From: an uncultured Candidatus Saccharibacteria bacterium
Lineage (GTDB): Bacteria > Patescibacteriota > Minisyncoccia > Portnoybacterales > GWB1-42-6
Assembly: GCA_964579775.1 (NCBI GenBank)
Contig: CAZOGP010000004.1
Location: 4,752 to 24,238 of the forward strand
Length of the DNA: 19,487 nt
Direction of reading: 5' to 3'
The notes beneath the pieces were generated by a model. The model did not search any database, had not been told where the DNA came from, and was given only the letters and a program-made list of their open reading frames with translations. The first letter of the stretch is position 1, and the number at the start of each line of letters is the position of its first letter. Positions 2,494 through 19,487 of this stretch are shown piece by piece. The position numbers and the translations under genes are program-made.

Positions 2494-2522
2494 AACGGCA
2501 CGGAAAAATTCCTCCCCTGAAA

Positions 2523-2659
2523 CCCCCACACCTAATCAGGAATTATTTTACAAAAAATATTTTCCGACTAAAAAATAACCTCCATTTTATTTCAAGTCCC
2601 CAGCCTAGTCGCTTATTAATTCCGCCGACGGAATTCATTTTCCTGATTAGGTGTGGGGG
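2523..2659 (+). ncRNA. 137-nt structured element closed by a perfect 20-bp inverted repeat (leader RNA, ncRNA or MITE-like)
   Basis: CCCCCACACCTAATCAGGAA (2523-2542) is the exact reverse complement of 2640-2659. Inside are CGACTA...TAGTCG and AATTCCG-ccga-CGGAATT, giving three-way-junction-like geometry. It lies about 25 nt downstream of the predicted promoter. Confidence 0.4.
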
Positions 2660-2705
2660 AAAGGTCGAATTTATTGTTTTAAATAATTTTTAACTATTTT
2701 CAAAA

Positions 2706-2894
2706 ATGACGACTTTCTCTTTTTACCCGGGAGACGAGGACCAGGACCCGAAAAAGACCGACCCGACGGACGACCCATTGGTCGATGATCCAGCGGAAGA
2801 GGAAACCGAAGAAAAGGAATCGACCCCGGACGCGGACGAAGACGACCTGCTTGACGGGGATGACGGCATTGTGGAAGGCGAGGAAATTGAATAG
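2706..2894 (+). CDS. Hypothetical 62-aa hyper-acidic protein (27 Asp/Glu, 3 Lys)
   Basis: ATG-initiated ORF with strong period-3 GAN codon pattern. It has its own upstream promoter (2465-2493) and a hairpin terminator directly downstream (2907-2945). No SD is present, but most genes here lack one. Confidence 0.5.
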   Translation: MTTFSFYPGDEDQDPKKTDPTDDPLVDDPAEEETEEKESTPDADEDDLLDGDDGIVEGEEIE

Positions 2895-2906
2895 CTTTTA
2901 AAAAAG

Positions 2907-2945
2907 AAAAACCGCCCCAAGTTAAACTTAGGGCGGTTTTTCTTT
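2907..2945 (+). terminator. Rho-independent terminator (A-tract / GC stem / T-tract)
   Basis: AAAAACCGCCCCAAGTT-aa-ACTTAGGGCGGTTTTTCTTT: a 12-bp stem with one mismatch, followed by a T-run. Confidence 0.7.
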
Positions 2946-2959
2946 CTACCCTTAACGGC

Positions 2960-2988
2960 TTGAAAAATAAAGATTTTTTTGGCATAAT
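2960..2988 (+). promoter_or_regulatory. Sigma-70-type promoter for the PBP gene (TTGAAA - 17 nt - CATAAT)
   Basis: -35 TTGAAA at 2960-2965, a 17-nt spacer and -10 CATAAT at 2983-2988, 22 nt before the ATG at 3010. Confidence 0.45.
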
Positions 2989-3009
2989 TATATTATTGAT
3001 TTATAAGCA

Positions 3010-5706: not shown

Positions 5707-6000
5707 ACTGACGAAACTTATTTTTTCTACTCTTACCCAGCTATTCCTTCGCCTAACCTCTTCCAGAATCCTTAACTCCCTTAATTTAAGTTCACTCGCC
5801 CAAACAGAATTCAGGCAATCAACCATCAAAACTTCATTTTTCAAATTGATCACTTTCGATTTATTCTTGAATTTATCGCCGGCTATCTTTTGTAAAATAT
5901 CATCCCAGTCATTCTTAAGCTCGGCGAAGCGCCAAATCCGTTCTAGCCCCAGACTTTTTATTTTATTTGGGATAACCCAGGCAATTGAAGTCCAGCTCAT
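5704..6000 (-). CDS. dciA: DUF721/DciA-family protein (putative replicative helicase operator)
   Basis: 98 aa. W..DILQKIAGDKF..SKVINLKNEVLMVDCLNSVWASELKLRELRILEEV fits the DUF721 pattern (W..ivG...s.p..l..g.L.V.v.ssvWa.EL). The start lies 1 nt after the dnaN stop, which is the classical dnaA-dnaN-dciA position. Confidence 0.7.
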   Translation of the reverse strand: MSWTSIAWVIPNKIKSLGLERIWRFAELKNDWDDILQKIAGDKFKNKSKVINLKNEVLMVDCLNSVWASELKLRELRILEEVRRRNSWVRVEKISFVS

Positions 6001-6001
6001 T

Positions 6002-7102
6002 TTAATTAGCCTTGATCGGCATTACGAGATATATGTAAGACTCATCTCCGATCGGCCTGAAAACAGCGGGGTTGGAGTCCGAATTCATCCCTAAAAACAC
6101 CTGCTTAGTTCCAATATTAGCCAATCCTTCCAGCAAATAACGGTAGTTAAAGCTAATCTCGACTTTTTTACCTTTGGTCTCCGCCTTGATCTGTGATTTA
6201 TTCTCTCCCAGATCCGGGTCTTGTGACAAAACTTCAACCAGCCCTTCACCCAAAGAAACTTTTATATTATTAGTTTTACTGCTAAAAACCGAGGCGGCGC
6301 GAATAATGTTTAATAGTTCTGCTTTGTCAATTGTCGCCTGCGTAGAAAAATTTTTAGGAACGATTTGTTGATAGTCCGGATACTGCCCTTCAATTAACCG
6401 GGAAATAACCTGCGCGTCCCCGCCGTCAAATAAAATCTGCCCTGCCCCCAGATAAATTTTCATTTCCCCTTCTCTTTCGCCCAATATCCTAATTATCTCT
6501 TGGGCTGTTTTTTGCGGCACGATCAAAGACCTAATCTCGTCTGATTTTTTATTAGTCTCAAATATTATTTTTTCGGCCAAGCGAAAGCTGTCGGTCGCGG
6601 CTAGTTTCAGTTCTTTTTTCTCAAATTTAAACAGCACGCCGGTTATTTCCGGTCGGGACTCGGAAAGAGAAGCCAACCCCACCACCTTCAATAAGGCGTC
6701 TTTTAAAACGCTGTTTTTAATTTCAATTAGCGCTTCGCCGTCTATTTTGGGAATAATCGGAAAATCGTCCGCCGATAAACCGTTTAGCGTCGCCCGGTAA
6801 TTATCGCATTTTATGACCAAATTATTACCCCTAACCTCCAGTTCTATTTTTTTATTCGGCAAATTATTAATAAAACCGGTTAGCACCTTGGCGGGACAGG
6901 TTATTGCTCCATTTTTTTCAATTTTCCCAGAAGTCCAAGTGTTGATGCCAATTTCCAGGTTGGTCGAAGAAATCTTTAAGCGACCCTCTTTGGTGGCCAG
7001 TAAAACATTATTCAAGATTGGCAACGTCAAGTTCCGGCCAATAATATTTTGGGTTAGATTTAAACTATTTTTTAAGTTTTCCTGAAGGCAGGTGATTTTC
7101 AT
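6002..7102 (-). CDS. dnaN: DNA polymerase III beta sliding clamp
   Basis: 366 aa. N-terminus MKITCLQENLKNSLNLTQNIIGRNLTLPILNNVLL is typical, with C-terminal PAVFRP...YIYLVMPI. It lies immediately downstream of dnaA. Confidence 0.92.
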   Translation of the reverse strand: MKITCLQENLKNSLNLTQNIIGRNLTLPILNNVLLATKEGRLKISSTNLEIGINTWTSGKIEKNGAITCPAKVLTGFINNLPNKKIELEVRGNNLVIKCDNYRATLNGLSADDFPIIPKIDGEALIEIKNSVLKDALLKVVGLASLSESRPEITGVLFKFEKKELKLAATDSFRLAEKIIFETNKKSDEIRSLIVPQKTAQEIIRILGEREGEMKIYLGAGQILFDGGDAQVISRLIEGQYPDYQQIVPKNFSTQATIDKAELLNIIRAASVFSSKTNNIKVSLGEGLVEVLSQDPDLGENKSQIKAETKGKKVEISFNYRYLLEGLANIGTKQVFLGMNSDSNPAVFRPIGDESYIYLVMPIKAN

Positions 7103-7337
7103 AATTAAATATTTAATTAAAATAAATAATTATTATAAGGGTTAATTATTATGTGGAAAAGCTTGTTTTTCGGGGATAGTTATGGAAAAAAATGAATATT
7201 TTACTGTTGATAAAGGCGGGACGGGACGGGGTTAGTTTTAGGGTTAGTTTTTTTTAAAAAGATATTAAGTTTTTACCGGAATCTTTTCCACTAAGATATG
7301 AACATTATTATAAACAGCCTTATCAACAATTTGTTGG
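7103..7337. promoter_or_regulatory. Candidate oriC segment in the dnaA-dnaN spacer (AT-rich tract plus DnaA-box-like 9-mers)
   Basis: 7101-7150 is 47/50 A+T. One-mismatch matches to TTATCCACA/TGTGGATAA are TGTGGAAAA (7152-7160), TGTTGATAA (7205-7213) and TTATCAACA (7320-7328). A G-rich block spans 7215-7231, a tandem 12-mer GGGTTAGTTTT(A/T) spans 7229-7252, followed by T8/A5 runs. Confidence 0.55.
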
Positions 7338-8714
7338 TTATTTACTGTAGATCCTTTCTTTAATTAAATTGATCTCTTGTTGGAGGGTTTCGTTTTTTTC
7401 AACCTCTTTGGTTAATTTGTCGCAAGCGTACATAACGGTGGTGTGGTCCCGACCCCCTAATTTTTCACCAATAAAAGGAAAGGATTTTTTTAATTCTTCG
7501 CGCATCAAATACATCGCCACCTGACGAGGATAGACGACTTCCTTTCGGCGGCAGCGGTTTATCAGTTCGCTGGTGTTTATATCATAAAATTCAGCCACGG
7601 CCTGGATGATGTTTTTGTGGTTAGTTAGTTTTTTCGGGGAATTAATGATGTCATTCAGCGCCTTGGCCACCATGGTCAGGTCGGGATTGGCAGAGAGAGA
7701 GCCATTTGAGGCAATAATACGGTTTAGCGCCCCCTCAAGCTCTCGGATATTTTTTTTAACATTAACCGCGACGTAGTTTAAGATTTCGTCGGAGACGGTA
7801 AGCTTTTTTTCGGTGAGCTTGCTCTTTAAAATCGCCAAACGGGTTTCCATGTCTGGTTGGGAAATATCAGCGATCATTCCTCCCTCGAAGCGCGACCGCA
7901 ATCTTTCTTCCAGGGTGGCGATAGCCTTGGGGGGCCGGTCGGAACTTAACACGATCTGCTTATTTTTTTGGTACAGGAAGTTAAAGGTATGGAAAAATTC
8001 TTCCTGGGTTTTTTCCTTTCCGGACAAAAACTGAACATCATCAATGATCAGAACGTCGACTTGCCGGTAACTTTCTTTAAATTCTTCAATTTTGCCGTCG
8101 TGTAGGGAGCTGACGAGCTCGGAGGTGAATTTTTCCGAGCTGACGTATTTTACTTTCTTCTTCTTTTTATATTTTTCAACAATTTCGTTGCCCATGGCTT
8201 GCAGCAGGTGTGTCTTTCCCAGCCCCACGCCGCCGTAGATAAAAAGGGGGTTATAGGCTTCGCCGGGGCTATTGACCACTGCTTTGGCGGCCGCTTGCGC
8301 CAGCTCATTAAACGAGCCGACGATAAAATTACTAAAGGTATATTTTGGATTAAGGTTGGTTTCTTTATCAACCTCGAATTCTTTAAAGGATTGAGTTTGA
8401 TAGGCCAAGCTTTCTTTTTTGGCGGCACCCTTAATCTGTCCCTCGGTCATAACCAATGAAGCGGAGGGGCTGGCGCTGATGATGAACCGTAGTTCTTTAA
8501 TATCGCCGGAAATATTCCGAAGAGATCTTAAAATAAGCTTGTTATATTTATTCTCCAACCACTCCTTACTGAAGCCATTGGGTACGCCAATAATCGCTAT
8601 TCCGTCTTTGTTTTTTAGAATAAAGGTGTCGCGGAACCAGGTAATGAAATTAGCCCGCGAAATATTCAATTCCACTTCTCCGAGGGCTGTTTGCCAGAGT
8701 TGTTCGTTGGTCAT
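7338..8714 (-). CDS. dnaA: Chromosomal replication initiator DnaA
   Basis: Walker A GGVGLGKTHLL, LIIDDVQFL, sensor region and C-terminal DNA-binding KSFPFIGEKLGGRDHTTVMYACDK. The ATG at 8714 gives the typical N-terminus MTNEQLWQTALGEV. An upstream in-frame ATG at 8795 would add 27 Pro/Ala-rich residues and seems less likely. Confidence 0.92.
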   Translation of the reverse strand: MTNEQLWQTALGEVELNISRANFITWFRDTFILKNKDGIAIIGVPNGFSKEWLENKYNKLILRSLRNISGDIKELRFIISASPSASLVMTEGQIKGAAKKESLAYQTQSFKEFEVDKETNLNPKYTFSNFIVGSFNELAQAAAKAVVNSPGEAYNPLFIYGGVGLGKTHLLQAMGNEIVEKYKKKKKVKYVSSEKFTSELVSSLHDGKIEEFKESYRQVDVLIIDDVQFLSGKEKTQEEFFHTFNFLYQKNKQIVLSSDRPPKAIATLEERLRSRFEGGMIADISQPDMETRLAILKSKLTEKKLTVSDEILNYVAVNVKKNIRELEGALNRIIASNGSLSANPDLTMVAKALNDIINSPKKLTNHKNIIQAVAEFYDINTSELINRCRRKEVVYPRQVAMYLMREELKKSFPFIGEKLGGRDHTTVMYACDKLTKEVEKNETLQQEINLIKERIYSK

Positions 8715-8850
8715 ATTATTGATAGCCCCTTGCGCCGGCCCAGGCTGGGCTGGTGTAGGGGCGAAAACAGGGTTGGTCCTTCCTAGTAGTAGCATAGCAC
8801 ATCGTCAAGTTTAAAAAAATATAAAGAAAATAGCAATAAAAAGAGAAATT

Positions 8851-8870
8851 TGTTGATAAGTTGTGGATGG
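8851..8870. promoter_or_regulatory. DnaA-box-like pair in the rpmH-dnaA divergent spacer
   Basis: TGTTGATAA (8851-8859, 1 mismatch) and TGTGGATGG (8862-8870, 2 mismatches) lie in tandem, upstream of dnaA. Confidence 0.45.
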
Positions 8871-8904
8871 AAGGTGGACTGCCTTAAAAAGGTAAAAACT
8901 TAGA

Positions 8905-8933
8905 TTGACTTTTGGATCTTTAGATAGTATACT
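8905..8933 (+). promoter_or_regulatory. Sigma-70-type promoter for rpmH operon (TTGACT - 17 nt - TATACT)
   Basis: -35 at 8905-8910 and -10 at 8928-8933, 30 nt before the rpmH ATG. Confidence 0.5.
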
Positions 8934-8962
8934 TATTCTAAGTTAATTATTAAAATACTTCA

Positions 8963-9097
8963 ATGAGCGTCACTTATCAGCCGAAAAAAAGAAAAAGGAA
9001 GAAAACCCACGGGTTTTTGGTCCGACAAAGGACCTCCTATGGCCGTCGGGTCCTGGCGAAAAGAAGGAGAAAGCAGAGGAGAAAATTATCGGTTTAA
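8963..9097 (+). CDS. rpmH: 50S ribosomal protein L34
   Basis: Not in the ORF track because it is short. Manual translation gives [44 protein letters not shown], which carries the L34 signature TYQP.KRKR...HGF..R. It sits directly upstream of rnpA. Confidence 0.9.
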
Positions 9098-9102
9098 GTT
9101 TT

Positions 9103-9444
9103 ATGCTTCCAAAGACCAATCGGTTAAACAAACAAAAAGATTTTGACGACGTTTTTAAGCGCGGCAAAATTAAGCAAGACGGCTTTTTGGCGGTGAGAGT
9201 AAAATTAAACCAGCAAAAATTTTCTCGGTTTGGTTTTATTGTGAGCTCCCGCGCGGCTAAAAGCGCGGTTACGCGGAATCGCTTGAGGCGGCAACTAAGT
9301 GAAATTATCAGGCTGAAGCTGCCAGAAATTAAGAGCGGTTTCAATGTTGTCTTAACGGTTAAGTCCAGTTTAGCGGGAGCGGAGCATCGGGAAATGGAAA
9401 AAATTTTACTAGGCTTATTGGCCAAGCTTGAATTATATGGTTAA
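9103..9444 (+). CDS. rnpA: Ribonuclease P protein component
   Basis: 113 aa and basic. LPKTNRLNKQKDFDDVFKRGK...AVTRNRLRRQLSE carries the RNR motif region. It occupies the conserved rpmH-rnpA position. Confidence 0.88.
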   Translation: MLPKTNRLNKQKDFDDVFKRGKIKQDGFLAVRVKLNQQKFSRFGFIVSSRAAKSAVTRNRLRRQLSEIIRLKLPEIKSGFNVVLTVKSSLAGAEHREMEKILLGLLAKLELYG

Positions 9445-9738: not shown

Positions 9739-10467
9739 ATGGGAATCATTGGCGCTTTATTTAACGAGATTCTTTATCGGCCGTTGTTCAACGGACTTAT
9801 TTTTTTATATAATGCGGTTCCGCCGCATGATTTTGGCGTGGCAATAATTTTATTGACCGTCATTATCCGGCTGATCTTGTACCCCCTGAACCAGAAGGCG
9901 ATCGTTTCTCAAAAAAGGCTCAGCCAGCTTCAGCCACAGGTTAAAGAGATCCAATCTCAAAACTCGACCAACAAGATCAAGCAGTCCCAGCTTTTGATGG
10001 AGCTTTATAAAAAGAACAATGTTAATCCAGCCTCCGGGTGTTTGCCGCTCTTACTTCAGTTGCCGATCTTGATTGCCTTGTACCAGGTTTTTTGGAACGG
10101 ATTAAATCCGGATAGCTTAAGCGCTTTATATTCTTTTGTGAGCCGGCCGGAGGTGATAAATCCAATGTTCTTAGGGTTGATGAGCCTGGCGAAGGCCAGC
10201 CCGGTCCTGGCGATCTTAGCCGGGGCGTTCACTTTTTGGCAGTCAAAAATGATGGTGCCGCAGCCAGCCGCCGCTGGCCAAGGCAGTGATTTTGGCGCCG
10301 CGATGAACAAGCAGATGCTTTATTTCATGCCGCTGTTTACTGTTTTTATCGCTTGGAGCTTGCCGGCGGGGCTGGCGCTTTATTGGGTGATAACGACGCT
10401 AGCGGGCATTTTGCAGCAATATTACGTGATTAAAAAAAATGGAACAGGAAAAATTATCAAAAATTAA
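9739..10467 (+). CDS. yidC: Membrane protein insertase YidC (short form)
   Basis: 242 aa and multi-TM. Motifs include ILLTVIIRLILYPL..K, ELYKKNNVNPASGCLPLLLQLPILIALY and LALYWVITTL. Confidence 0.9.
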   Translation: MGIIGALFNEILYRPLFNGLIFLYNAVPPHDFGVAIILLTVIIRLILYPLNQKAIVSQKRLSQLQPQVKEIQSQNSTNKIKQSQLLMELYKKNNVNPASGCLPLLLQLPILIALYQVFWNGLNPDSLSALYSFVSRPEVINPMFLGLMSLAKASPVLAILAGAFTFWQSKMMVPQPAAAGQGSDFGAAMNKQMLYFMPLFTVFIAWSLPAGLALYWVITTLAGILQQYYVIKKNGTGKIIKN

Positions 10468-10921
10468 AGAAATAATAGAAGAGATCATAAAAACCACGGG
10501 CGTTGATGGGCGCGTGGCCGAAATTAACGATTCAGAAAGCGGAGTTTTGGCGCGACTGGAGAGCCATGAGGCGGGGTATCTCATTGGGCGCAACGGGGAG
10601 ACGTTAAGGGCTTTGCAGCAAATTATCAGGGCGATAGTCAACAAAAAGATCATTGACGCGCCGCGCTTAACGATTGACGTTAACGGTTATCAACAGGAGC
10701 GGCTGGAAGCGTTAAAAAGCGCTGCGTTGAGCTTGGCGCAAGAAGCGGCGCAGCAGAGGGTTTTCCGTTATTTGCCGCCGATGAACGCGTATGAACGGCG
10801 GGTGGTGCACACCGCGCTGGCCGACGTGCCGGGCGTTAAGACCGAGTCGGAGGGCGAGGGGGAGAACAGAAGGATTGTGATAAGGCCGACCACGGATAAC
10901 GCAGATTTTGGGCGGATCTAG
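10439..10921 (+). CDS. jag: Jag/SpoIIIJ-associated RNA-binding protein (KH + R3H domains)
   Basis: GYLIGRNGETLRALQ (KH GxxG) and PPMNAYERRVVHTAL (R3H). It overlaps the yidC 3' end by 29 nt, in the conserved yidC-jag order. Confidence 0.85.
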   Translation: MEQEKLSKIKEIIEEIIKTTGVDGRVAEINDSESGVLARLESHEAGYLIGRNGETLRALQQIIRAIVNKKIIDAPRLTIDVNGYQQERLEALKSAALSLAQEAAQQRVFRYLPPMNAYERRVVHTALADVPGVKTESEGEGENRRIVIRPTTDNADFGRI

Positions 10922-10986: not shown

Positions 10987-12405
10987 ATGTTGGCAAAAAA
11001 GATTGCCGTCAATACGATAATCTCAGTCGCGTCGCGTGTCGCGGGTACTTTGTTGGCGCTGGCGACCATCGGCTTAATTACCCGGTATCTGACAAAAAAT
11101 GAGTGGGGCGAGTATTCGATTATGCTTACCTTTGGCGGTATTTTCGCGGTCTTGGCCGACCTCGGGCTTTATCAGCTGATGGTTCGCGAAATTTCAAAAC
11201 CCCAGGCCGATGAGCATAAAATTGCCAGCAATATTTTTTCTCTTAGGCTGTTCAGCAGCCTTTTTATTTTTGCCGCCGCGCCCTTGGTCGGTCTTCTTTT
11301 CCCTTATTCGGAGCAGGCTAAACTTGGGATCTTAGTGGGCATGGCTGGTTTTTGGTTCTTAGCCGACAGCCAGGTATTGATGGGTTTATTCCAGAAATAT
11401 CTCCAGATGGGGCGAGTGGCAATGGCGGAGCTAGCCGGTCGAATTGTCCAGTTGGGGTTGGTTTGGCTATTTATTAAACTGGAGTACGGTTTTTTACCCA
11501 TCGTGGCCACCTTGACCGTCAGCGGCGCGGTCAATTTCATCCTGGTCTTTTGGTGGGCCCGTAAATATTGCCGCTTGTCTTTAGCTTTTGACTGGTCTTT
11601 TTGGAAAAAGATCGTTGAGCAAAGTTATCCTTTGGCGATCGCCAGCGTTTTGATAATGATTTATTTTTCTTCAGATTCTCTATTTTTGTCCGCGCTTAAG
11701 CCCGCCGCGGATGTTGGCGTCTACCGCCTGCCTTATAAAATTTTAGAAAGCTTAATTTTTTTCCCGGCCATGTTCGTGGGTTTGATTATGCCGCTCCTGG
11801 CGCGGGCGGCCCAAGCCGATAAGGAAAAGTTCAAAAATATTTTTCAGCGGGGCAGCGATATTTTAATGGTTATCATTGTTCCTTTAGTTTTCGGGACCTG
11901 GATTCTTTCTCCCGCCATCATTGATCTTTTGGGCGGCGGCCAATACAACGAGTCCGTGGCGGTTTTTAATATTTTGATTATAGCGGTGGGCATAATCTTT
12001 TTAGGTACGCTTTTTTCATATGTTTTAATTGCCCTGGAAAAACAGCGGTCTCTGCTTTGGATCTCGGCCACGGGGGCGATTTTTAATGTCGCCGCCAACC
12101 TTATTTTTATTCCCCGTTATTCTTATTACGCGGCCGCCAGCACCACGGTATTAACTGAGGCGTTGGTGTTGGTGTTAATGGCGGTTATGGTTTATCGTTT
12201 TTTCCGCTGGCTGCCGTCGTTTAAGATAATTTTTAAGACCCTGCTGGCGGCCGCGGGGATGATGGCGGTTTTGGGGTTCTTGTCCGGCTGGAATTTGGCG
12301 TTATTGTTGACCGTCGCGACGATTGTTTATTTTGGACTTTTATATTTGCTGCGCGCATTTTCCCGGGCCGAGATATCAAGCTTAATAGGGGGCGGAGAAG
12401 GTTAG
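10987..12405 (+). CDS. MOP-superfamily polysaccharide/lipid-linked oligosaccharide flippase (Wzx/MurJ-like)
   Basis: 472 aa with about 12-14 predicted TM helices. N-terminal KKIAVNTIISVASRVAGTLLALATIGLITRYL..EWGEY is the pattern typical of Wzx-type 'polysaccharide biosynthesis protein'. Confidence 0.75.
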   Translation: MLAKKIAVNTIISVASRVAGTLLALATIGLITRYLTKNEWGEYSIMLTFGGIFAVLADLGLYQLMVREISKPQADEHKIASNIFSLRLFSSLFIFAAAPLVGLLFPYSEQAKLGILVGMAGFWFLADSQVLMGLFQKYLQMGRVAMAELAGRIVQLGLVWLFIKLEYGFLPIVATLTVSGAVNFILVFWWARKYCRLSLAFDWSFWKKIVEQSYPLAIASVLIMIYFSSDSLFLSALKPAADVGVYRLPYKILESLIFFPAMFVGLIMPLLARAAQADKEKFKNIFQRGSDILMVIIVPLVFGTWILSPAIIDLLGGGQYNESVAVFNILIIAVGIIFLGTLFSYVLIALEKQRSLLWISATGAIFNVAANLIFIPRYSYYAAASTTVLTEALVLVLMAVMVYRFFRWLPSFKIIFKTLLAAAGMMAVLGFLSGWNLALLLTVATIVYFGLLYLLRAFSRAEISSLIGGGEG

Positions 12406-12434: not shown

Positions 12435-13820
12435 ATGAAGCGTCAGCCCTGGCTAACTTTACTTTTGTTGCTTTTAGTCGCCTATCTCCCCTTTCAGGTT
12501 GCCCTGAATTTATCGCCTGATATCGACCTGATGTCCGGCCGGGTTTTGGTTTTGGGGCTGTTTTTTCTTTGGCTGATAAAAGAAACAGATCAACATAAAT
12601 TTTGGTGTCATCCCGGGCTTGCCGCGGGATCCAGGTCCCAAAACAAGTCCGGGGCGACAAAATTCTGGATTCCCGCTGGAGTTTACCCCGTACTGCGATA
12701 CGGGGCGGGAAGGACAGAGGGGTGGGCGCTGGTCTTATTTTTTGTTTTATCCGCAGTTTCAATTTTAGGCGCCGTCAATCAAGCCTGGGGTTGGCGTAAA
12801 CTTTTGTTTTTTGCTTCGATCTTTCCCCTTTTTTGGCTGACCGCGGCGTTGGTAAGAAATAAAGAACACACGAGGAAGATAATTTATATAATAATTGGCA
12901 GCGCGGCCGTTTCCGCCATTGTCGCCTTGGCGCAATTTTTAGCGCAATTTATTTTTGGGCTGGCCGCGGTTATGAGTTTTTGGTCGGTGCATATTTTACC
13001 GCTGTTTTCCGGCGCGGGTTTTGGTTCGCTGGTCGCGTCAAATCCCAGCTGGCTCGTAAATATTGGCGGGCAAACTGTGATGCGGGCCGTTGGGCTGTTT
13101 CCCGATCCGCATATGCTGGCTTTTTATTTGGGCCTCACTTCCCCGTTCGCACTGGCGCTGGCATTTTTTGGCCAGCGGCACCGCGGTATTTTTTTTACTG
13201 TTTACTGCTTGCTGTTAACCGTTTTATTCCTAACCTTTTCTCGAGGCGGCTATTTGGGGCTGTTATTTAGCCTGGCGGTTTTTATTTTTTTTGCCTGGCA
13301 GCGTTTTGGCAACAAGGCCAAAAAGTTTCTTGGCGCGACATCTTTATTGCTGGTAGTGATTTTGCTCTTGGTTGGCTGGCCGGTGGCAACGCGCCTAATA
13401 TCAAGTTTTGATTTTAGGGAAGGTTCAAATATGGGGCGCTTGGTTGTTTGGCAAGATTCCTGGGAGATCATCAAAAAAAGTCCGATTATCGGGGTCGGAC
13501 TGGGTAACTATTCTTTGGCCGTCAACTTCAATCAGGACTACCGCAACGCCGTCACTAGCCATAATTTATATTTGGACCTTTTGGCCGAGACGGGTCTTTT
13601 AGGACTGGCGGCGTGGCTGACGGTTCTGGGGCTGGGGGGTCTAGCCGCGTGGCGAAAGATAGGGTCGGAACCGGTTGTAGCGTTTAGTACACTGTCCGCC
13701 CTGGCTTATTTTGGCGCGCATTCATTTTTTGAGACCGCGATTTTTAATCCGACCGGGCTGGCGTTTTTAATGATAATTTTAGCTCTGTCTGTGGCGGAGA
13801 CCAAAGAAGATGTTCTATAG
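12435..13820 (+). CDS. O-antigen ligase family (Wzy_C domain) membrane protein, paralog 1, carrying an intragenic palindromic repeat
   Basis: Polytopic membrane protein. Motifs are FSRGGYLGLLFSLAVFIFF, GVGLGNYSLAV and SHNLYLDLLAETGLLGLAAWL (Wzy_C/WaaL-like H-N-x-y-L..e.G motif). Confidence 0.8.
   Translation: MKRQPWLTLLLLLLVAYLPFQVALNLSPDIDLMSGRVLVLGLFFLWLIKETDQHKFWCHPGLAAGSRSQNKSGATKFWIPAGVYPVLRYGAGRTEGWALVLFFVLSAVSILGAVNQAWGWRKLLFFASIFPLFWLTAALVRNKEHTRKIIYIIIGSAAVSAIVALAQFLAQFIFGLAAVMSFWSVHILPLFSGAGFGSLVASNPSWLVNIGGQTVMRAVGLFPDPHMLAFYLGLTSPFALALAFFGQRHRGIFFTVYCLLLTVLFLTFSRGGYLGLLFSLAVFIFFAWQRFGNKAKKFLGATSLLLVVILLLVGWPVATRLISSFDFREGSNMGRLVVWQDSWEIIKKSPIIGVGLGNYSLAVNFNQDYRNAVTSHNLYLDLLAETGLLGLAAWLTVLGLGGLAAWRKIGSEPVVAFSTLSALAYFGAHSFFETAIFNPTGLAFLMIILALSVAETKEDVL
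12606..12717. repeat. Palindromic repeat family copy B, inside CDS 12435-13820
   Basis: TGTCATCCCGGGCTTGCCGCGGGATCCAG (12606-12634) and CTGGATTCCCGCTGGAGTTTACCCCGTACTGCGATACGGGGCGGGAAGGACAG (12665-12717). The region is translated as CHPGLAAGSR...WIPAGVYPVLRYGAGRTE. Confidence 0.8.
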
Positions 13821-15213
13821 TCTGCAAACAAACTGGCAATTCGTAATTTTGTTTATCGGCCTTTTGGCCGCGGCTATTATCAACTGGAGAAAACCAGGTT
13901 GCGGCGCCTGGCTGATATTTTTTTTGTCGCCGCTTTATCTGTTAAAAATCGGCAATTGGCCCTTAACTGTCCTGGAGGCGCTGATGTGGTTGTTTATAGG
14001 AGTCTGGCTGGTAAGAAAAGTAAAAAATAGTTGTCATCCCGGGCTTGACCCGGGATCCAGGCCCTGGATTCCCGCCCTTCTTGCATCAGGATCTATGACT
14101 TGCGCGGGAATGACAAGAGGGGTTATTACCAAAGTAATCAAGAACGATATTTTTCTACCACCTTTACTGATTTTAGCTGGCGTTTTTATCTCCGCCGTCT
14201 TTTCGCCCGACCCGAAAACTGGCTTGGGTATTTTAAAATCCTGGTTCTTGGCCCCGATGATTTTTGCTTTTATTCTAAGAGATATTTTTGAGGGCGGTGG
14301 TTTAAAAGAAATGTTTTCGGCGCTATTTGTTTCTTCGGCCGCGGTGGCGGCAATAAGTTTTGTTTATTTGGCGTCCGGACATTTGACTTTTGACGGCCGT
14401 TTAACGGCTTTTTATCTGTCTCCCAATCACCTGGCTATGTATCTGGCGCCGGGGTTGCTGGTCGGCTTGGCTTTATGGTCGGACGCGAAAAAAACACACC
14501 AAAGAATCTTATTGTTTATTGGTTATTGTTTATTGGCTACTGTTTTATACGCCACTTATTCTTTTGGCGCCTGGCTTGGTCTGGCCGCGGCCGCGGTTTT
14601 AATTTTATTTTATCTTTGGCGTTTAAAATTAATGAGCCGTCGTCAATTGTTAATGGTTATTTGTTTATCGGTAATTTTATTTATATTTGTGCTTGGCCAG
14701 CAGTTGTTCGACGTAAATAACGATAAGCTATCTAATCTATTCTCCTCTCCCCGCTCCTCCTGGCAATCGCGCCTGATGGTCTGGCAGGCGGCTACCCAGA
14801 TCTTAAAAGACCACGGGTTTCTAGGGATCGGGCCGGGGCTGTTCCAGAACTATTATTTGGAGTACCAGCAATATTTTTCTGTGCCGTATTTGGAGTGGGC
14901 CGTGCCCCAGCCCCATAATTTATTTTTGGCCTGGTGGCTGCAAGCGGGCCTGGCAGGGTTGGTTGGTTTCTTTTGGCTACTGATAGTTTTTTTCCGACGG
15001 GGATTCAAGACACTAAAAAAACCCTCCTTCGTCCCACTAGGCGGGACTTCGGAGGGCAAGCAAAATCACCTCTGGATCATTATTTTAATGGCCGTAATGA
15101 CGTATTTTTTGGTCCACGGTCTAGTCGATACTACTTTCTGGAAAAATGACCTGGCGCTGATCTGGTGGGTTATTGTATTTTTAGGCTCCAGAGCAGGCCG
15201 TCGCGTTTATTGA
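13810..15213 (+). CDS. O-antigen ligase family (Wzy_C domain) membrane protein, paralog 2, carrying an intragenic palindromic repeat
   Basis: Polytopic membrane protein. Motifs are YSFGAWLGLAAAAVLILF, GIGPGLFQNYY and PHNLFLAWWLQAGLAGLVGFFWLL. It overlaps the preceding gene by 11 nt. Confidence 0.8.
   Translation: MFYSLQTNWQFVILFIGLLAAAIINWRKPGCGAWLIFFLSPLYLLKIGNWPLTVLEALMWLFIGVWLVRKVKNSCHPGLDPGSRPWIPALLASGSMTCAGMTRGVITKVIKNDIFLPPLLILAGVFISAVFSPDPKTGLGILKSWFLAPMIFAFILRDIFEGGGLKEMFSALFVSSAAVAAISFVYLASGHLTFDGRLTAFYLSPNHLAMYLAPGLLVGLALWSDAKKTHQRILLFIGYCLLATVLYATYSFGAWLGLAAAAVLILFYLWRLKLMSRRQLLMVICLSVILFIFVLGQQLFDVNNDKLSNLFSSPRSSWQSRLMVWQAATQILKDHGFLGIGPGLFQNYYLEYQQYFSVPYLEWAVPQPHNLFLAWWLQAGLAGLVGFFWLLIVFFRRGFKTLKKPSFVPLGGTSEGKQNHLWIIILMAVMTYFLVHGLVDTTFWKNDLALIWWVIVFLGSRAGRRVY
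14033..14116. repeat. Palindromic repeat family copy C, inside CDS 13810-15213
   Basis: TGTCATCCCGGGCTTGACCCGGGATCCAG (14033-14061) and CTGGATTCCCGC...GCGGGAATGACA (14065-14116). The region is translated as CHPGLDPGSRPWIPALLASGSMTCAGMT. Confidence 0.8.
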
Positions 15214-16366
15214 CGAAAAATAAGTAATCTTCTTTGGGCGAAAGAAATAATTCCTGGGCGTCAAAGCCGACCTGATCGGAAGAACCCAGGATTTTTGTTT
15301 TGGCGTTGGTTTCCAGGTTTATTTTGTAGAAATCATCCGCCAGGATGACCAGGCCCTTATAATAGTCATCCGGCCAGACGGCATTAGCCGATAGCTCTTG
15401 CGGCAGGGCGCAGAAGATCGTCCGGTCGTCGCTTGCCCAGACGCATTTATCCGCCAGGCCGCTAAGCTTTAAGTCTTTGGCATTGGCGCCGATGCCGTCC
15501 GTTAATGACAGGCCTGGGTTTTGGCCGCGGTCGTTAGTCGAGGAGAAAAGTATTTTATCGGCCCGAGGGGACCATTTAACACTTAAACCAAAGAGGTCGC
15601 TGAGCGCCCGGGAAAAGTCGCCGGTGGTTGAATTCAGAGCGTAAAGCAGGCCTTGCGCCAGGCCGCTGGGGGGCTGGCGCAGAGAGATTTTTTCTTTAAT
15701 GGGCCACTCCACGATCAAATTATCCAGGCGGGTCTTAAAAATATTTGCCCAACCGGAACCATCGGGGTTGGCCACACTGATATTGTGCTGGCCGGTGGCA
15801 GAGTCAATAAAATGATAGGCGATCTTTTTGCTGTCGGGCGACCAGGCCACCGAACCCATTTTTTCATTGAGGAGCGAAGACTGATTGTTGGTGTAGTCGT
15901 AAAAATATTTTTTAAGTTGATTGTTATCAGAAAAAAATCCAATGACCTTGGTTTTATCCGGCGACCAGAGCGCTTTGATCAAGCCGTTCAATGTCGTGGA
16001 CGAGATTTTTTTAAGGCTGGCGCCCAGGAAATCAGATTCCCAGACATTGCCGTTGGCGCGGGTGAAATACTTAACGGTTTTGCCGTCTTCTCCAATGGTT
16101 GGCGCCAGGACCGGCTCTTTGCTGATAGCTTTAATTTTTGAGGCCGTTTGGCCTGGGCTGATGCTTTGGTTGGCGCCGCTTCCCGGCAAGAACGATGAAC
16201 CGCCAGTAGTTTGTCCCGCGCCGGGTGAGGCGGAGGGCAGGCTGCCGCCCTGCTCCGTTTCTCCGCCCGGAGCGGTTGATTTAAAAAAGAAATTATAAAC
16301 TAACAGCGAGCCCAGCGATAGGACCAATAAGATTGAGGCGATGATGAGGATTTTTTTAGTGTTCAT
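15170..16366 (-). CDS. Membrane-anchored TolB-like beta-propeller (PD40/WD40-like repeat) protein
   Basis: N-terminal TM KILIIASILLVLSLGSLLVYNFFF, then a Gly/Ser/Pro-rich linker. Repeated WSPD-type blades are ALWSPDKTKVIGF, VAWSPDSKKIAYHF, VKWSPRADKILFSS and CVWASDDRTIFCA. Confidence 0.75.
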   Translation of the reverse strand: MNTKKILIIASILLVLSLGSLLVYNFFFKSTAPGGETEQGGSLPSASPGAGQTTGGSSFLPGSGANQSISPGQTASKIKAISKEPVLAPTIGEDGKTVKYFTRANGNVWESDFLGASLKKISSTTLNGLIKALWSPDKTKVIGFFSDNNQLKKYFYDYTNNQSSLLNEKMGSVAWSPDSKKIAYHFIDSATGQHNISVANPDGSGWANIFKTRLDNLIVEWPIKEKISLRQPPSGLAQGLLYALNSTTGDFSRALSDLFGLSVKWSPRADKILFSSTNDRGQNPGLSLTDGIGANAKDLKLSGLADKCVWASDDRTIFCALPQELSANAVWPDDYYKGLVILADDFYKINLETNAKTKILGSSDQVGFDAQELFLSPKEDYLFFVNKRDGLLWSLKIQ

Positions 16367-16407
16367 AGGTTTTGTTAATCATTTTTATTTATAATAATAG
16401 CATATTT

Positions 16408-17076
16408 TTATTGGCAGGACGTACTGTCTGGGACGGACCTGGCAATACAGTTGGCCACCCCAAAAAAAAGCGGGCAAGCGTCTTTTGTTTTGTAGCAATT
16501 ATTTTTATCACACCAGCAAGTTTTAATTTTTTCCGTAGCAGGCGGCGGCCCCTGGCAATAGCAGCTATTGTTTTCAGCGGTAAATACGATGGGATTTGGC
16601 GCACACTTAGCGGTGCAGGCCTCTATGGTGGTTTGTTTAGTCAAGTAGGTTTGAGGCGTGACTGACGGTGATGCCGGCGCGGCGACATTGCCGAGCGGAG
16701 AAATTGATGGCGATAAATTCGTCAAACTCGGGTCAATGGTGGCCAAGATCAGCCAGGAACAGAGCAGCAAGGCGATGCCCATCAGCGCGCCAACGATCCA
16801 GTCTTTAGCCTTTTGCGTAGTCCCAACGGACGGGGCCAGCATGTAATTTATCCCGCCCCAAACAATCGCGCCCACCGCCAGGAACCCGGCCAGGGATAAA
16901 CCGAAAATGAATAGATACCGGACATAGACGCCGGGGTCGGAGACGATTGGGGAGGTCATGCCGGGTAGACTAATTTCAACTTTGTAGGCGGCGTGTCCAA
17001 TAGTCGCGTAGAAAAGTAAAGATAAAGCCTCGAAGATAGTTAGAAAAATTTTTTTATGATTTGAAAATAAATTCAT
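16408..17076 (-). CDS. Exported VirB2/TrbC-like two-helix pilin module fused to a 99-aa, 10-cysteine C-terminal domain
   Basis: Signal peptide with GHA|A. Hydrophobic hairpin YLFIFGLSLAGFLAVGAIVWGGINYM - APSVGTTQKAKDW - IVGALMGIALLLCSWLILATI. The C-terminus holds 10 Cys (EACTAKC..SCYC..TCWC..NNC..DAC..ANC..STC). Confidence 0.65.
   Translation of the reverse strand: MNLFSNHKKIFLTIFEALSLLFYATIGHAAYKVEISLPGMTSPIVSDPGVYVRYLFIFGLSLAGFLAVGAIVWGGINYMLAPSVGTTQKAKDWIVGALMGIALLLCSWLILATIDPSLTNLSPSISPLGNVAAPASPSVTPQTYLTKQTTIEACTAKCAPNPIVFTAENNSCYCQGPPPATEKIKTCWCDKNNCYKTKDACPLFFGVANCIARSVPDSTSCQ
16709..16968. repeat. 260-bp direct repeat, copy 1 (100% identical to 17673-17932)
   Basis: Base-by-base comparison shows identity from GGCGATAAATTCG... 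to ...CATGCCGGGTAG. The flanks diverge immediately on both sides. Confidence 0.95.
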
Positions 17077-17107
17077 TTTGGTTTTGGCCTCGTAGTTGAG
17101 CGATTAC

Positions 17108-17159
17108 CTGGATTCCCGCCGGAGTTTACCCCGTACTTGATACGGGGCGGGAATGACAG
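17108..17159. repeat. Palindromic repeat family copy D, intercistronic between the two pilin-like genes
   Basis: CTGGATTCCCGCCGGAGTTTACCCCGTACTTGATACGGGGCGGGAATGACAG forms a nested hairpin (ATTCCCGCC/GGCGGGAAT outer, CCCCGTA/TACGGGG inner). It is near-identical to 12665-12717. Confidence 0.8.
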
Positions 17160-17170
17160 AAGGCCTTACT

Positions 17171-18055
17171 TTAGACGCAATTGGCTTTAACACTGTAATG
17201 GATGTGGTCGGTGTGGCTGGCGCAGCTTTTGCTTTTTGAAGCGTTTTGTCCCCCGCCGGCGCGGCAGTATTGGGGAAATCCGGCGTAGAATAGCTGGTCA
17301 ACGCATTTGTCTTGACTTAACGTTTGCATAACTTGCTGTTTTTGAGAGTCGTTTAAATTAGAAACCCGGATATCGGCCGCTCTCCCCGTGCAGTGGGTGG
17401 ATGAGCCGCAAGCGGCGCCCGGCACGCAGGTGTCAGTCGCAGAACAACCGTGGCTGCCTGTTGTTTCAGTTATTGTAACTTCAACCGGAAGCGAACCAAG
17501 ATCTTTTACCAGGGTGTTGTTTACTTGTCCGGTTTGAATGTCTTGGCAAATCTTGGCGGTTTTGCATTTTATTTCTTGCGCGCCGGTTATGGGCGGGGTG
17601 ACAGCTCCCTCTGTTAGGCCGGAATCCGGGGGGCTTGGAGGTTCGGGGACGGTTACGATTTCTAATTGGGTGGGCGATAAATTCGTCAAACTCGGGTCAA
17701 TGGTGGCCAAGATCAGCCAGGAACAGAGCAGCAAGGCGATGCCCATCAGCGCGCCAACGATCCAGTCTTTAGCCTTTTGCGTAGTCCCAACGGACGGGGC
17801 CAGCATGTAATTTATCCCGCCCCAAACAATCGCGCCCACCGCCAGGAACCCGGCCAGGGATAAACCGAAAATGAATAGATACCGGACATAGACGCCGGGG
17901 TCGGAGACGATTGGGGAGGTCATGCCGGGTAGTTTTATCTCTAGCGTATAGGCCAGGGCACTTGGAGCGATAAAAAAAATAACAGATAATAGGCTTAAGA
18001 AAATAAATTTTAATTTTAGAAGAGTCTTTAGCAAGAAGGTTTTACTTAATTTCAA
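17171..18055 (-). CDS. Exported VirB2/TrbC-like pilin module fused to a Hedgehog/DD-peptidase-fold (LAS, peptidase M15-like) zinc hydrolase domain
   Basis: Signal peptide with ALA|Y and the same 87-aa two-helix module as 16408-17076, then a Pro-rich linker PEPPSPPDSG. The C-terminal domain has VEVTITETTGSHG...STHCTGRAADIRV (S-x-H-x-x-G-x-A-x-D, i.e. H-x6-D) and DHIHYSVKA (H-x-H). The start is TTG at 18055, with no in-frame ATG before residue 45. Confidence 0.7.
   Translation of the reverse strand: MKLSKTFLLKTLLKLKFIFLSLLSVIFFIAPSALAYTLEIKLPGMTSPIVSDPGVYVRYLFIFGLSLAGFLAVGAIVWGGINYMLAPSVGTTQKAKDWIVGALMGIALLLCSWLILATIDPSLTNLSPTQLEIVTVPEPPSPPDSGLTEGAVTPPITGAQEIKCKTAKICQDIQTGQVNNTLVKDLGSLPVEVTITETTGSHGCSATDTCVPGAACGSSTHCTGRAADIRVSNLNDSQKQQVMQTLSQDKCVDQLFYAGFPQYCRAGGGQNASKSKSCASHTDHIHYSVKANCV
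17673..17932. repeat. 260-bp direct repeat, copy 2 (100% identical to 16709-16968)
   Basis: See copy 1. The offset between copies is exactly 964 nt. Confidence 0.95.
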
Positions 18056-18788
18056 CGCTTAAATTAGCCGTAGATTGCTGCAGTTGGTCGGCTTTATTTT
18101 GAATAAAGAGCGACAGGTCTTTAAAAATAGACGCCGATAAATTGCCGGCGGGAATTTTTATTGTCAGCTGGTTGGGATTTTTTTCATCAAGCGTGTCTAA
18201 AATTTGTCTGTCTATCGCCCAGCTGAAAGCTAAGTCGGCGATATTTTGAGTGTTGAAAAACAGAGGCTCGGCCAGCAGGGTCAGGTTCTGGCCGGTGGCG
18301 GCGATTAGCGAGTCTTGCGCGGCATAGTTGCTGTTGGTAGTTTTAAATAAGATCTGGGGGCTGGCGATCTTTATGGTTAAAAATCCCCGCCAGATAATCT
18401 TTTCTTGGCTGTCTAATATTTGAGATTCTATTTCATGGTCGTCCCCGCCCCACTTGGTGGTTCGGAACTGAAACGACGACCTGCCTATGCCTTGCGCCGA
18501 ATACATAATTTCGTTATCCAGGAGCCAGCGATAATAGAGCGCGTCGGGATTTTGGGAGAGTTTTTTGGTCGGCAAAACCGCCACTTTTATGGTGCTGCCG
18601 CGCGAAGGCAGAGCCTTGCCTTCATAATCCAGCGGCACATAAGAATTGCTGGACCAGGTAAGCAGGAAATCATTGTCAACGGCGCGGGCGACGGGAGGCG
18701 CTGCCAGCGCGAAATAAAGTCCGGCCACAATGAGAAGGATTATTAATAAAGAGTTAACAGAGGTAGATTTTTTTAATAGATTGAACAT
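18042..18788 (-). CDS. Exported hypothetical protein with two tandem beta-rich domains
   Basis: Signal/anchor SLLIILLIVAGLYFALAAPPVARA|VD. The halves share the pattern [ST]xIxVxxxP...[YF]xWxxDxxI (STIKVAVLP..YYRWLLDNEI versus QNLTLLAEP..AFSWAIDRQI). The stop overlaps the next gene's start by 14 nt. Confidence 0.6.
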   Translation of the reverse strand: MFNLLKKSTSVNSLLIILLIVAGLYFALAAPPVARAVDNDFLLTWSSNSYVPLDYEGKALPSRGSTIKVAVLPTKKLSQNPDALYYRWLLDNEIMYSAQGIGRSSFQFRTTKWGGDDHEIESQILDSQEKIIWRGFLTIKIASPQILFKTTNSNYAAQDSLIAATGQNLTLLAEPLFFNTQNIADLAFSWAIDRQILDTLDEKNPNQLTIKIPAGNLSASIFKDLSLFIQNKADQLQQSTANLSVEIK

Positions 18789-18803
18789 TGTTGTGAGATT
18801 TCT

Positions 18804-18940
18804 CCCTCTCTTAAGTTAAGAGAGGGTTAGGGTGAGTTATGCTCATTGAGTCGCTGAAGTCAAACTTCAAAGGCAACCCGAAGTCTGACTTCAGCGACCG
18901 GCTATAACTCCTCCCCACCTCCTCTTAATTTAAGAGGAGG
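18804..18940. repeat. Composite multi-hairpin intergenic element (copy 2 of 2; see 940-1079)
   Basis: CCCTCTCTTAA-g-TTAAGAGAGGG (18804-18826, followed by TTAGGGTGAG). A 19-bp stem with one mismatch, GTCGCTGAAGTCAAACTTC...GAAGTCTGACTTCAGCGAC (18850-18898). CCTCCTCTTAA-t-TTAAGAGGAGG (18918-18940). Confidence 0.6.
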
Positions 18941-18964
18941 AGAAGCTTGCGTTGGCTCCCCTTT

Positions 18965-19444
18965 TTATATTTGTTGATTTTTTAACATTTTATTGGCCAT
19001 CGCTAGACCGCCGGGGTTTTTCATGGCGTCATAGACTTGGGCCGCCGCCTTCTTTTTAATGTAAGAGTAGACGACTATGCCGATATTGCTGGGCAGGATG
19101 CCTAAAGATACAACGTCTATAATTTTGGCCACGATAAAAGTAAGTATCGGGTCAAGCTTGGGATTATAACCTTTTTGCCACCAGCCAAAAATCAGGCCGG
19201 CCAGGGTTTCAGTGAATAGATTAATTATGGGAATAAGTCCGATTAAGTCAAACAAGGCGGCTAAACACAGCATCTCCCAGGGAAAAGAAGCGGGCTCGGG
19301 CGGAGCGATGGGCCGCTCGGACGACTCGGTTTGCCTGGCGCGGTCTCCTTCTGTCTGCTGGGCTTGTCGGGTTTTATCTCGCTCGGACCGTTGGGCTTGC
19401 CGGCTGCGGTCCTCTTCAAATTGTTGTTGGTAGTTGTCGGGCAT
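18965..19444 (-). CDS. Hypothetical membrane protein with charged 11-aa repeat N-terminus
   Basis: The N-terminus has three repeats, RSRQAQRSERD / KTRQAQQTEGD / RARQTESSERP. Hydrophobic segments follow: MLCLAALFDLIGLIPIINLF, LAGLIFGWW and IIDVVSLGILPSNIGIVVYSYI. The ATG at 19444 is preferred over the track's TTG at 19468. Confidence 0.55.
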   Translation of the reverse strand: MPDNYQQQFEEDRSRQAQRSERDKTRQAQQTEGDRARQTESSERPIAPPEPASFPWEMLCLAALFDLIGLIPIINLFTETLAGLIFGWWQKGYNPKLDPILTFIVAKIIDVVSLGILPSNIGIVVYSYIKKKAAAQVYDAMKNPGGLAMANKMLKNQQI

Positions 19445-19487
19445 GAGTTCATTTAAACATTTAAACAATTTAACAACTTAACAAAAT

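Follow-up and report, generated by a model that had tools for sequence, protein, structure and literature searches.

What kind of system is encoded by five consecutive minus-strand genes whose products are all exported or membrane proteins, and what would it do for its bearer? We examined this question for a 19,487-nt stretch of a Patescibacteria genome (contig CAZOGP010000004.1 of assembly GCA_964579775.1; hereafter the window), where such genes occupy 15170-19468. An initial annotation, made from the letters alone, had taken them for an uncharacterised cell-surface module, possibly an envelope-spanning or cell-contact apparatus, that continues past the window edge. We conclude with high confidence that the five genes are the extracytoplasmic half of a type IV secretion system (T4SS). 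The guess of a cell-contact apparatus was right in substance, and the genes do form one conserved, tightly packed same-strand unit; the unit is not self-contained, however, but the 3' part of a known T4SS locus of ∼12 genes.

In the direction of transcription, the first gene (18965-19444) encodes a small polytopic membrane protein of 159 aa counted from its ATG, which the listing of open reading frames (ORFs) allows to be extended to a TTG at 19468. It is followed by the gene of a membrane-anchored or exported tandem Ig/FN3-like protein of 248 aa (18042-18788), whose stop overlaps the start of the third gene by 14 nt (18042..18055), as had been noted before. The third gene (17171-18055, TTG start, 294 aa) and the fourth (16408-17076, 222 aa) share a VirB2-like pilin module, which is joined to a LAS/M15-like C-terminal domain in the former and to a Cys-rich one in the latter. 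The last gene of the locus (15170-16366) encodes a membrane-anchored TolB/PD40-type beta-propeller protein of 398 aa. From the hydropathy profiles we observed at least one strongly hydrophobic segment in every product, in agreement with the earlier description, and none of the five has a housekeeping orthologue. A phage origin found no support, with zero PHROGs matches for all five proteins.

The cluster indeed continues beyond the window edge. An ENA assembly contig (L001) with 100% identity to 17792-19487 extends 2,012 nt beyond the window and codes for a 605-aa VirB4-type ATPase, in which Walker A (SGSGKS) and Walker B (VVDE) are intact. The virB4 stop codon lies on the same strand, 52 nt past the window end (base 19487), so that the small membrane protein gene is the first after virB4. 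A near-identical VirB4 orthologue (L005) matches P-loop_TraG with an E of 1.4e-27 and also DUF87, and scores 21.5 bits against a cutoff of 21 for CagE_TrbE_VirB.

We fetched related loci with a VirB4 query, taking one genome per species, and obtained 80 loci, all from metagenome-assembled genomes of Patescibacteria. VirB4 identity across them goes from 88% in the closest, a Portnoybacteria genome, down to 57%. The window proteins were compared with the six-frame ORFs of these loci, 58 of which have at least 5 kb downstream of VirB4. We observed one same-strand order: a TSP3 protein, a protein with one transmembrane (TM) segment, an 8-TM protein, PrgI/VirB3, a TraC-like protein and VirB4, and then the accessory genes, namely the small membrane protein, the Ig-like protein, one to three pilin-module genes and the propeller. 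The pilin is kept in 52/58 loci and the propeller, after the pilin, in 51/58; the Ig-like protein stands between VirB4 and the pilin in 37/58, and all three occur in order in 36/58. The median gap is 0 nt from the Ig-like gene to the pilin gene and 14 nt from there to the propeller gene. A homologue of the 159-aa protein follows VirB4 on the same strand in 56/80 loci (iterated hidden Markov model search, with the N-masked locus L071 set aside), starting -13 to +316 nt from the VirB4 stop. In L071 we had considered a fusion of VirB4 with the small membrane protein; the apparent 753-aa ORF crosses a masked run of ∼100 N (3753-3852) and is an artefact.

Upstream of VirB4, the proteins of L005 were compared with 47 loci. 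PrgI/VirB3 (PrgI PF12666, E 5e-8 in L005) and the 8-TM protein of ∼850 aa were found in 47/47, a soluble 210-aa protein in 46/47, and the TSP3-repeat protein, a 670-aa single-TM protein and a 339-aa protein less constantly. From its topology alone, the 8-TM protein is probably VirB6-like. For the window's own genome, the sequence available upstream of VirB4 amounts to a 27-aa gene fragment.

A 482-kb contig (L088), reached through a propeller homologue of 45% identity and carrying independent, precomputed gene calls, agrees with this order. Its labels read TSP3, PrgI (PF12666), TraC-like (PF26593), P-loop_TraG/DUF87 and T4SS_pilin (PF18895), and the T4SS string is followed by Wzy_C, flippase, R3H, YidC, YidD, RnpA, L34, DnaA, DnaN and PBP. 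In the fetched loci, too, the T4SS block converges on the ligases and the flippase (where present), Jag and YidC, beyond which lie dnaA, dnaN and PBP1; dnaA falls inside the fetched flank in 38/58 loci, at a median of 6 kb from the VirB4 end. The recurrence of the gene order in most of the 80 species-representative genomes is far beyond chance; a gene order not kept in related genomes, one of the outcomes that by the initial annotation would refute a module, is clearly not what we observed. As the same order recurs across the loci and in L088, we concluded that the five genes make up the distal part of one collinear ∼12-gene locus.

This locus is the chromosomal Patescibacteria T4SS close to the replication origin (oriC) that was already described in 2023 and 2025. 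The survey by Quinonero-Coronel et al. (2025; PMC12102498) placed the Patescibacteria VirB4 in a clade related to the monoderm MPF-FATA class, reported TrsD, PrgI, VirB6 and PF18895 VirB2-like pilins near VirB4 without a relaxase, and found the T4SS close to dnaA/dnaN in Paceibacteria and Microgenomatia. The present locus resembles that system in having a chromosomal virB4 of the Patescibacteria clade with PrgI/VirB3 and a TrsD/TraC-like gene just upstream, in its PF18895 pilins adjoining virB4, in having neither relaxase nor coupling protein (no Pfam match to either in the annotated locus L088), and in its position beside dnaA/dnaN/rnpA/rpmH in Paceibacteria. By transposon sequencing, Wang et al. 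(2023; PMC10633639) showed that Southlakia epibionticum requires its T4SS cluster, pilins included, to grow as an epibiont; in strain ML1 the cluster comprises SEML1_0004-0019 and likewise adjoins dnaA/dnaN. In our loci (L005-L084), VirB4 is 58-88% identical to the window lineage compared with 43-76% for DnaA where the two are comparable; it is conserved as much as DnaA or more, and more than DnaN or YidC, which fits an indispensable function.

Some features distal to virB4 we did not find in the published descriptions. The component list of the 2025 survey is without the small membrane protein, the tandem Ig-like protein and the propeller, which are fixed members here. Its text mentions no TolB, PD40 or propeller and uses the word 'fusion' once, for VirB3-VirB4, and the accessible part of its supplements has no TolB, PD40 or propeller term either (PMC12102498). 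Within the accessible parts of the 2023 and 2025 papers, then, the accessory genes and the pilin-enzyme fusion architecture are not described; otherwise the locus is an ordinary member of the described system.

The small membrane protein diverges fast. It has a charged, Q/R/E-rich N-terminus of ∼50 aa with an imperfect repeat spaced at 66 nt (the charged repeat N-terminus of the initial annotation), and hydrophobic blocks at 55-86 and 97-129. We found no Pfam or PDB relative for it, and weak DUF4112 matches in 8/57 family members. In the 248-aa protein, a single N-terminal hydrophobic helix is followed by the two tandem beta-rich domains that had been predicted: the AlphaFold2 (AF2) model, built from a 31-sequence alignment with a mean confidence score (pLDDT) of 85.6, has a helix at 6-28 and then two all-beta sandwich domains, and Foldseek matched these to tandem FN3/Ig/cadherin/Hoc domains in the PDB (best E 2.6e-7). 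The database holds 50 homologues only, all unnamed. The relatives are 230-475 aa long, and a varying number of Ig-like domains could possibly explain this range. We also considered VirB8 for this position and rejected it, as the model is tandem Ig-like and not NTF2, with Ig/FN3/cadherin-type folds as the top Foldseek matches.

The propeller protein consists of an N-terminal TM anchor, a low-complexity linker rich in G/S/T/P and the propeller itself. Residues 73-291 align to positions 181-399 of the TolB profile TIGR02800 with an E of 3e-7, but the score of 29.6 bits is far from the equivalog cutoff of 343.15; the PDB match to TolB has an E of 4e-4, and homologues give faint matches to the Pfam propellers PF26549, PF26550, PF07676 and PF00930. 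The resemblance to TolB is real but weak, and it covers the propeller part only; the N-terminal alpha/beta domain of TolB is absent.

Could the cluster, or at least its propeller and hydrolases, then be a Tol-Pal-like or division-related envelope module, which neighbours the T4SS merely through their shared proximity to oriC? The initial annotation had argued from TolB-type propellers to peptidoglycan-associated complexes, and the weak similarity across the PD40 propeller would speak for such a module, together with a propeller evolution rate like that of YidC or flippase and with housekeeping envelope neighbours (YidC, flippase, the O-antigen-ligase-like genes, PBP1). The argument does not hold. 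The propeller lacks the N-terminal, TolA-binding domain and carries a TM anchor instead of a cleaved signal peptide, and no tolQ, tolR, tolA or pal was found among the window ORFs or in the Pfam-annotated locus L088. Patescibacteria, moreover, are monoderms (PMC12857230). The propeller also stays with the pilin where the ligase or flippase is absent or where extra genes are inserted after VirB4, and its strand and spacing tie it to the T4SS genes, while it converges on the housekeeping block. This is the weakest of the alternatives, and we consider it very unlikely.

The shared module of the two fusion proteins had been recognised before as a pilin module; it belongs specifically to the VirB2-like PF18895 family (E 9e-5 for the 294-aa and 5.7e-5 for the 222-aa protein). 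PF18895 matches 66/82 syntenic members of the pilin family, with a best E of 9e-14. Both proteins have a signal-peptide-like segment and two hydrophobic helices, and each contains 11 Cys; in the AF2 model of the 294-aa protein, helices at 5-33, 53-89 and 93-119 precede a low-confidence Pro-rich linker at ∼127-136. The layout of VirB2/TrbC pilins, a signal peptide followed by a helical hairpin, is therefore present in both hydropathy and model. Their small, module-only size is not matched, as C-terminal domains of ∼165 and ∼100 aa follow. The public gene call for the pilin-LAS protein (P0171) has 250 aa and starts at an internal ATG (Met45), which loses the signal peptide; we favour the TTG at 18055 because homologues at 46-76% identity keep the N-terminal signal peptide.

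At the DNA level the module is a 281-nt direct repeat on the minus strand, with copy 1 at 17673-17953 inside the pilin-LAS gene and copy 2 at 16709-16989 inside the pilin-Cys gene. All 9 mismatches are confined to the first 21 nt, and no difference occurs over the other 260 nt; the edges are sharp, and the flanks on both sides are unrelated. An assembly artefact was considered and rejected for copy 2, which is bridged by three independent assemblies (L085, L086 and L087), while the collapsed repeat contig has double depth (24.3 against ∼12 in the flanks, run X3) and contigs break at the repeat edges. Copy 1 is bridged by the source contig only; full-length homologues at 76% identity back its architecture.

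In six close genomes with two paralogues, together with the window, the modules are 71-93% identical within a genome, whereas between the window and its nearest relatives identity is 50-58%, or 68% for one pair that also shares the LAS head. We read this pattern in the close genomes as gene conversion, or concerted evolution. Within more distant multi-pilin loci (L040, L068 and L079) the modules are 45-54% identical. The pilin arrays of the 2025 survey average 25% and reach at most 54% identity (PMC12102498), and the window paralogues differ from them in their identical 260 nt.

Behind the module of the 294-aa protein lies a ∼140-aa alpha/beta domain with 10 Cys (AF2 block pLDDT about 72-96, mostly 87-96), which carries the LAS motif S-x-H-x-x-G-x-A-x-D at 219-228 (STHCTGRAAD) and H-I-H at 284-286. 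When close full-length homologues are aligned (A3), all of them keep H221 and D228, and nearly all keep H284 and H286; in the 19-member domain family (A4), D228 and H284 are the only invariant residues, H221 is nearly invariant, and the pattern becomes H-x6-D ... H-x-[HD], with the last His replaced by Asp (HWD) in some relatives. Peptidase_M15_3 matched the whole protein with an E of 0.003 and the domain alone with 0.001 (18-19.6 bits against a cutoff of 23.2), and the family profile matched a Hedgehog N-domain in the PDB (E 0.002). M15_4 was matched by 3/19 family members and HH_signal by 2/19, and several members match M15_3, M15_4, Extensin-like_C or HH_signal; all these weak matches fall in LAS-type families. 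The motifs and the LAS-type matches together lead us to call this head LAS-like, with its metal ligands intact, and its membership in M15 as not proven. The H-x6-D ... H-x-H motif and the ∼140-aa alpha/beta domain are what it has in common with the LAS/M15 peptidases (VanX, LdcB, phage L-Ala-D-Glu endolysins) and the Hedgehog N-domain. It differs from the peptidases in being very divergent (below the Pfam cutoffs), in its 10 Cys and in its place behind a T4SS pilin module.

The head of the 222-aa protein is an orphan of ∼100 aa, also with 10 Cys. Among 1.84 billion proteins we found 2 representatives, both behind a pilin module and with most Cys aligned. Across the syntenic loci, 64 C-terminal domains fall into 36 sequence clusters, of which the LAS family makes up 19/64. 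Other heads in the related loci are SLT (4 members, E 3e-30), lysozyme-like, M15_4 and glucosaminidase domains; database homologues add YkuD L,D-transpeptidase and further SLT heads, and most of the others are Cys-rich without a family assignment. In 49 loci, VirB4 and the propeller have just one pilin gene between them; the head has at least 100 aa in 30 of these, 40-99 aa in 11, and is missing from the pilin in 8. A literature search returned nothing on pilin-hydrolase fusions.

These observations can be combined into a working mechanism. VirB4 would be held at the membrane by PrgI, and possibly also by the 159-aa polytopic protein, and would power the extraction of the membrane-embedded VirB2-like subunits, which would assemble into a short pilus or a conduit through the cell wall. 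The heads would sit on the Pro-rich linker of the pilin subunits, where the LAS/M15-type zinc peptidase head may cut the peptide stems of peptidoglycan, in a wall opening of the VirB1 type in the bearer's own wall or that of its host, and the disulfide-rich head of the 222-aa protein may be an adhesin. With an identical module, both paralogues would be able to enter one and the same assembly. Extracytoplasmic scaffolding or wall binding could be the part of the Ig-like protein and the propeller, which would take the place of VirB7/9/10 and VirB8, both missing here. If Southlakia is a guide, the machine would serve contact-dependent exchange with a host cell and not conjugation. As a whole, the reading of the five genes as the promoter-distal, extracytoplasmic half of the T4SS of a groundwater Paceibacteria/Parcubacteria bacterium, with this mechanism, is the best explanation that we have, and we assign it a probability of roughly 0.8.

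Several points weigh against it. The region upstream of VirB4 is inferred from relatives at 87-88% VirB4 identity. The window modules score 23.5 and 22.9 bits, just below the PF18895 gathering cutoff of 26.6, and the LAS assignment is based on motifs and sub-threshold matches; Foldseek with the full-length pilin-LAS model, in which the long helices dominate, gave nothing significant, the best match being an M15 endolysin (8q2g) at an E of 0.66. A physical contact of the propeller or the Ig-like protein with the T4SS is conjectural. Both enlarged intergenic gaps of the window hold strong hairpins that could split the transcript or affect read-through; among the RNA runs searched, none had the window sequence, and promoter and terminator consensus scans stayed at chance (6 found against 4.4 expected; 8 against 7.4). 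Lastly, there is no precedent for a VirB2-type filament in which every subunit bears a head of 100-400 aa, and as the fused gene is mostly the only pilin gene nearby, the module may be a membrane anchor only.

In that case the module would be a two-helix membrane anchor that makes no pilus, and the fusions would be tethered autolysins that open the cell's own peptidoglycan for the T4SS channel, in a role of the VirB1/PrgK/TraG type, with the Ig-like protein and the propeller as wall-binding accessories. Since 41/49 single-pilin loci have a head of at least 40 aa on their only nearby pilin, tight helical packing would indeed be hard; the recognisable heads (LAS, SLT, lysozyme-like, glucosaminidase, YkuD) are cell-wall enzymes, and the T4SS hydrolases PrgK and TraG of monoderms are membrane-anchored (PMC12102498). 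Yet an unfused pilin of 120-170 aa occupies the same position in the 8 headless single-pilin loci and in L088, which argues that the module has a role of its own, and the unfused VirB2-like pilins of Southlakia are essential (PMC10633639). Many heads, besides, are Cys-rich orphans without an enzyme signature, and the strict homogenisation of the module exceeds the needs of a simple anchor. We regard the anchor as possible, though improbable on balance.

The diversity of the heads suggests another explanation, in which the fusions are polymorphic effectors: the module would serve for delivery or recognition by the T4SS, and the heads would be swappable toxins that degrade the wall, or 'can-openers' specific to a host, directed against the host or against competitors and akin to X-T4SS effectors or polymorphic toxins of the LXG/Rhs type. 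The 36 clusters among 64 domains are what one would expect from such proteins, as are a recombination edge exactly at the end of the conserved module, a head family with 2 representatives in 1.84 billion proteins, and identified heads that are peptidoglycan-active enzymes typical of interbacterial effectors. But no variable small immunity-like ORF follows the heads, where the conserved propeller gene comes next at its median gap of 14 nt; the N-terminal module forms a hairpin integral to the membrane and is no soluble secretion signal; and the LAS head, the commonest of all, is kept across distant lineages and looks like a core part and not like arms-race cargo. We therefore consider effectors unlikely.

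Within the T4SS reading one can speculate further, though with little confidence, that the filament subunit of the Paceibacteria T4SS is itself the delivery vehicle: a pilus studded or tipped with exchangeable wall-cutting or adhesive heads would drill the host wall, gene conversion would keep the module identical while heads are swapped at its boundary to suit the wall chemistry of the host, and the propeller and the Ig-like stalk would form an extracellular collar specific to monoderms.

How does the distal half compare with known systems? The MPF-FATA systems (pCF10 Prg, pIP501 Tra, pGO1 Trs) have in common with it the minimal inner-membrane set of VirB3-like protein, VirB4 and VirB6-like protein, a gene for a membrane-anchored peptidoglycan hydrolase just after VirB4, and the lack of a VirB7/9/10 outer-membrane core. 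Unlike the present locus they have a relaxase and a coupling protein and no VirB2-like pilin; their hydrolases are SLT/CHAP proteins and not pilin fusions, and they have a VirB8-like NTF2 fold where an Ig-like fold stands at a comparable position here.

The Southlakia locus comes closer. It, too, has VirB6-like, PrgI and VirB4 proteins, VirB2-like pilins in the locus, and a LAS domain along with wall hydrolases. The genes downstream of its VirB4 encode a protein of 1113 aa with a C-terminal Hedgehog/DD-peptidase (LAS) domain, one of the lysozyme-like/cysteine-proteinase kind, and two small exported proteins with a pair of beta-sandwich domains each, and the genes downstream of VirB4 were all called essential at the two later time points (PMC10633639 supplement). 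There are differences: its six pilins are small (104-185 aa), unfused and divergent and are encoded in a separate, divergently transcribed array, its LAS domain is borne by the 1113-aa protein, and it has no propeller gene. The gene content downstream of VirB4 would appear parallel in the two genomes at the level of position and fold class only.

Before the T4SS of Patescibacteria, none had been reported as essential to the cell that carries it; a pilus-like conduit leading to the host is the speculation offered in reviews (PMC12857230). In Paceibacteria, the largest class, conservation extends past the VirB components listed so far and takes in the small membrane protein, the Ig-like protein and the propeller with its anchor. 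The 'pilin' of this class is usually a fusion protein with a head that is often a peptidoglycan hydrolase, and these heads are testable candidates for the way in which an epibiont breaches the wall of its host.

The window differs from its relatives in the spacing of the genes. The gap between the two pilin genes and that between the small membrane and Ig-like genes are 94 and 176 nt, compared with 6-11 nt in L005 and 4-11 nt in L006, and each is filled by a palindromic element on the minus strand. The one between the pilin genes (17105-17161) is nested, reads gtcattcccgccccgta...tacggggtaaactccggcgggaatccag on the minus strand and occurs also at 2344-2375; its RNA fold has a free energy (dG) of -32.1 with a z of -3.2. 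In four groundwater runs the contig word depth over it is 83-343x against ∼7-14x in the flanks, with many loose ends, and from this depth we take the element to be common to many sites or genomes of the community, in the manner of REP or MITE elements. The other (18800-18945) is a near-perfect palindrome of 146 nt (inverted repeats I3, I12 and I18) with a dG of -82.1 kcal/mol and a z of -10.2. A variant that joins 18841 to 18903, without the central 61-nt hairpin, is present in all four runs. This palindrome is a candidate site for processing or attenuation within the operon.

We also noticed copies of the nested palindromic element in frame inside both O-antigen-ligase-like genes, at ∼12600-12716 in the first (12435-13820) and at ∼14040-14115 in the second (13810-15213), where it encodes stretches such as HPGLAAGSRS...IPAGVYPVLRYGAGRTEG. 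Orthologues of the ORF at 12435-13820 in L005, L006 and L013 are without the element residues. The in-frame copies resemble the palindromic elements that invade coding sequences in Rickettsia.

In the rest of the window, the gene content resembles that around the replication origin of a small Patescibacteria chromosome. Its ORFs encode YebC (1127-1852), RuvC (1858-2328), PBP1 (3010-5565), DnaN (dnaN, 6002-7102), DnaA (dnaA, 7338-8795), RnpA (rnpA, 9103-9444), YidC (9739-10467), Jag (10439-10921) and a flippase (10987-12405). The cumulative GC skew has its minimum at ∼6500-7000, and AT-rich gaps at 7103-7337 and 8796-9100 are flanked by dnaN, dnaA and rnpA; the skew and the gaps fit an oriC in the 6000-9100 region, ∼6-8 kb from the end of the T4SS locus. 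We found no tRNA genes and no Rfam families in the window. The stretch 2329-3009 (∼680 nt) has no convincing ORF, tRNA or Rfam match and holds two strong hairpins, at 2344-2375 and, with 21-nt arms, at 2903-2945. Near the left edge, the product of an ORF at 134-922 (262 aa) has a linker rich in T/P/A and a hydrophobic anchor at its C-terminus; its N-terminal part, judged by eye, looks like a lamin-tail-type (LTD) domain.

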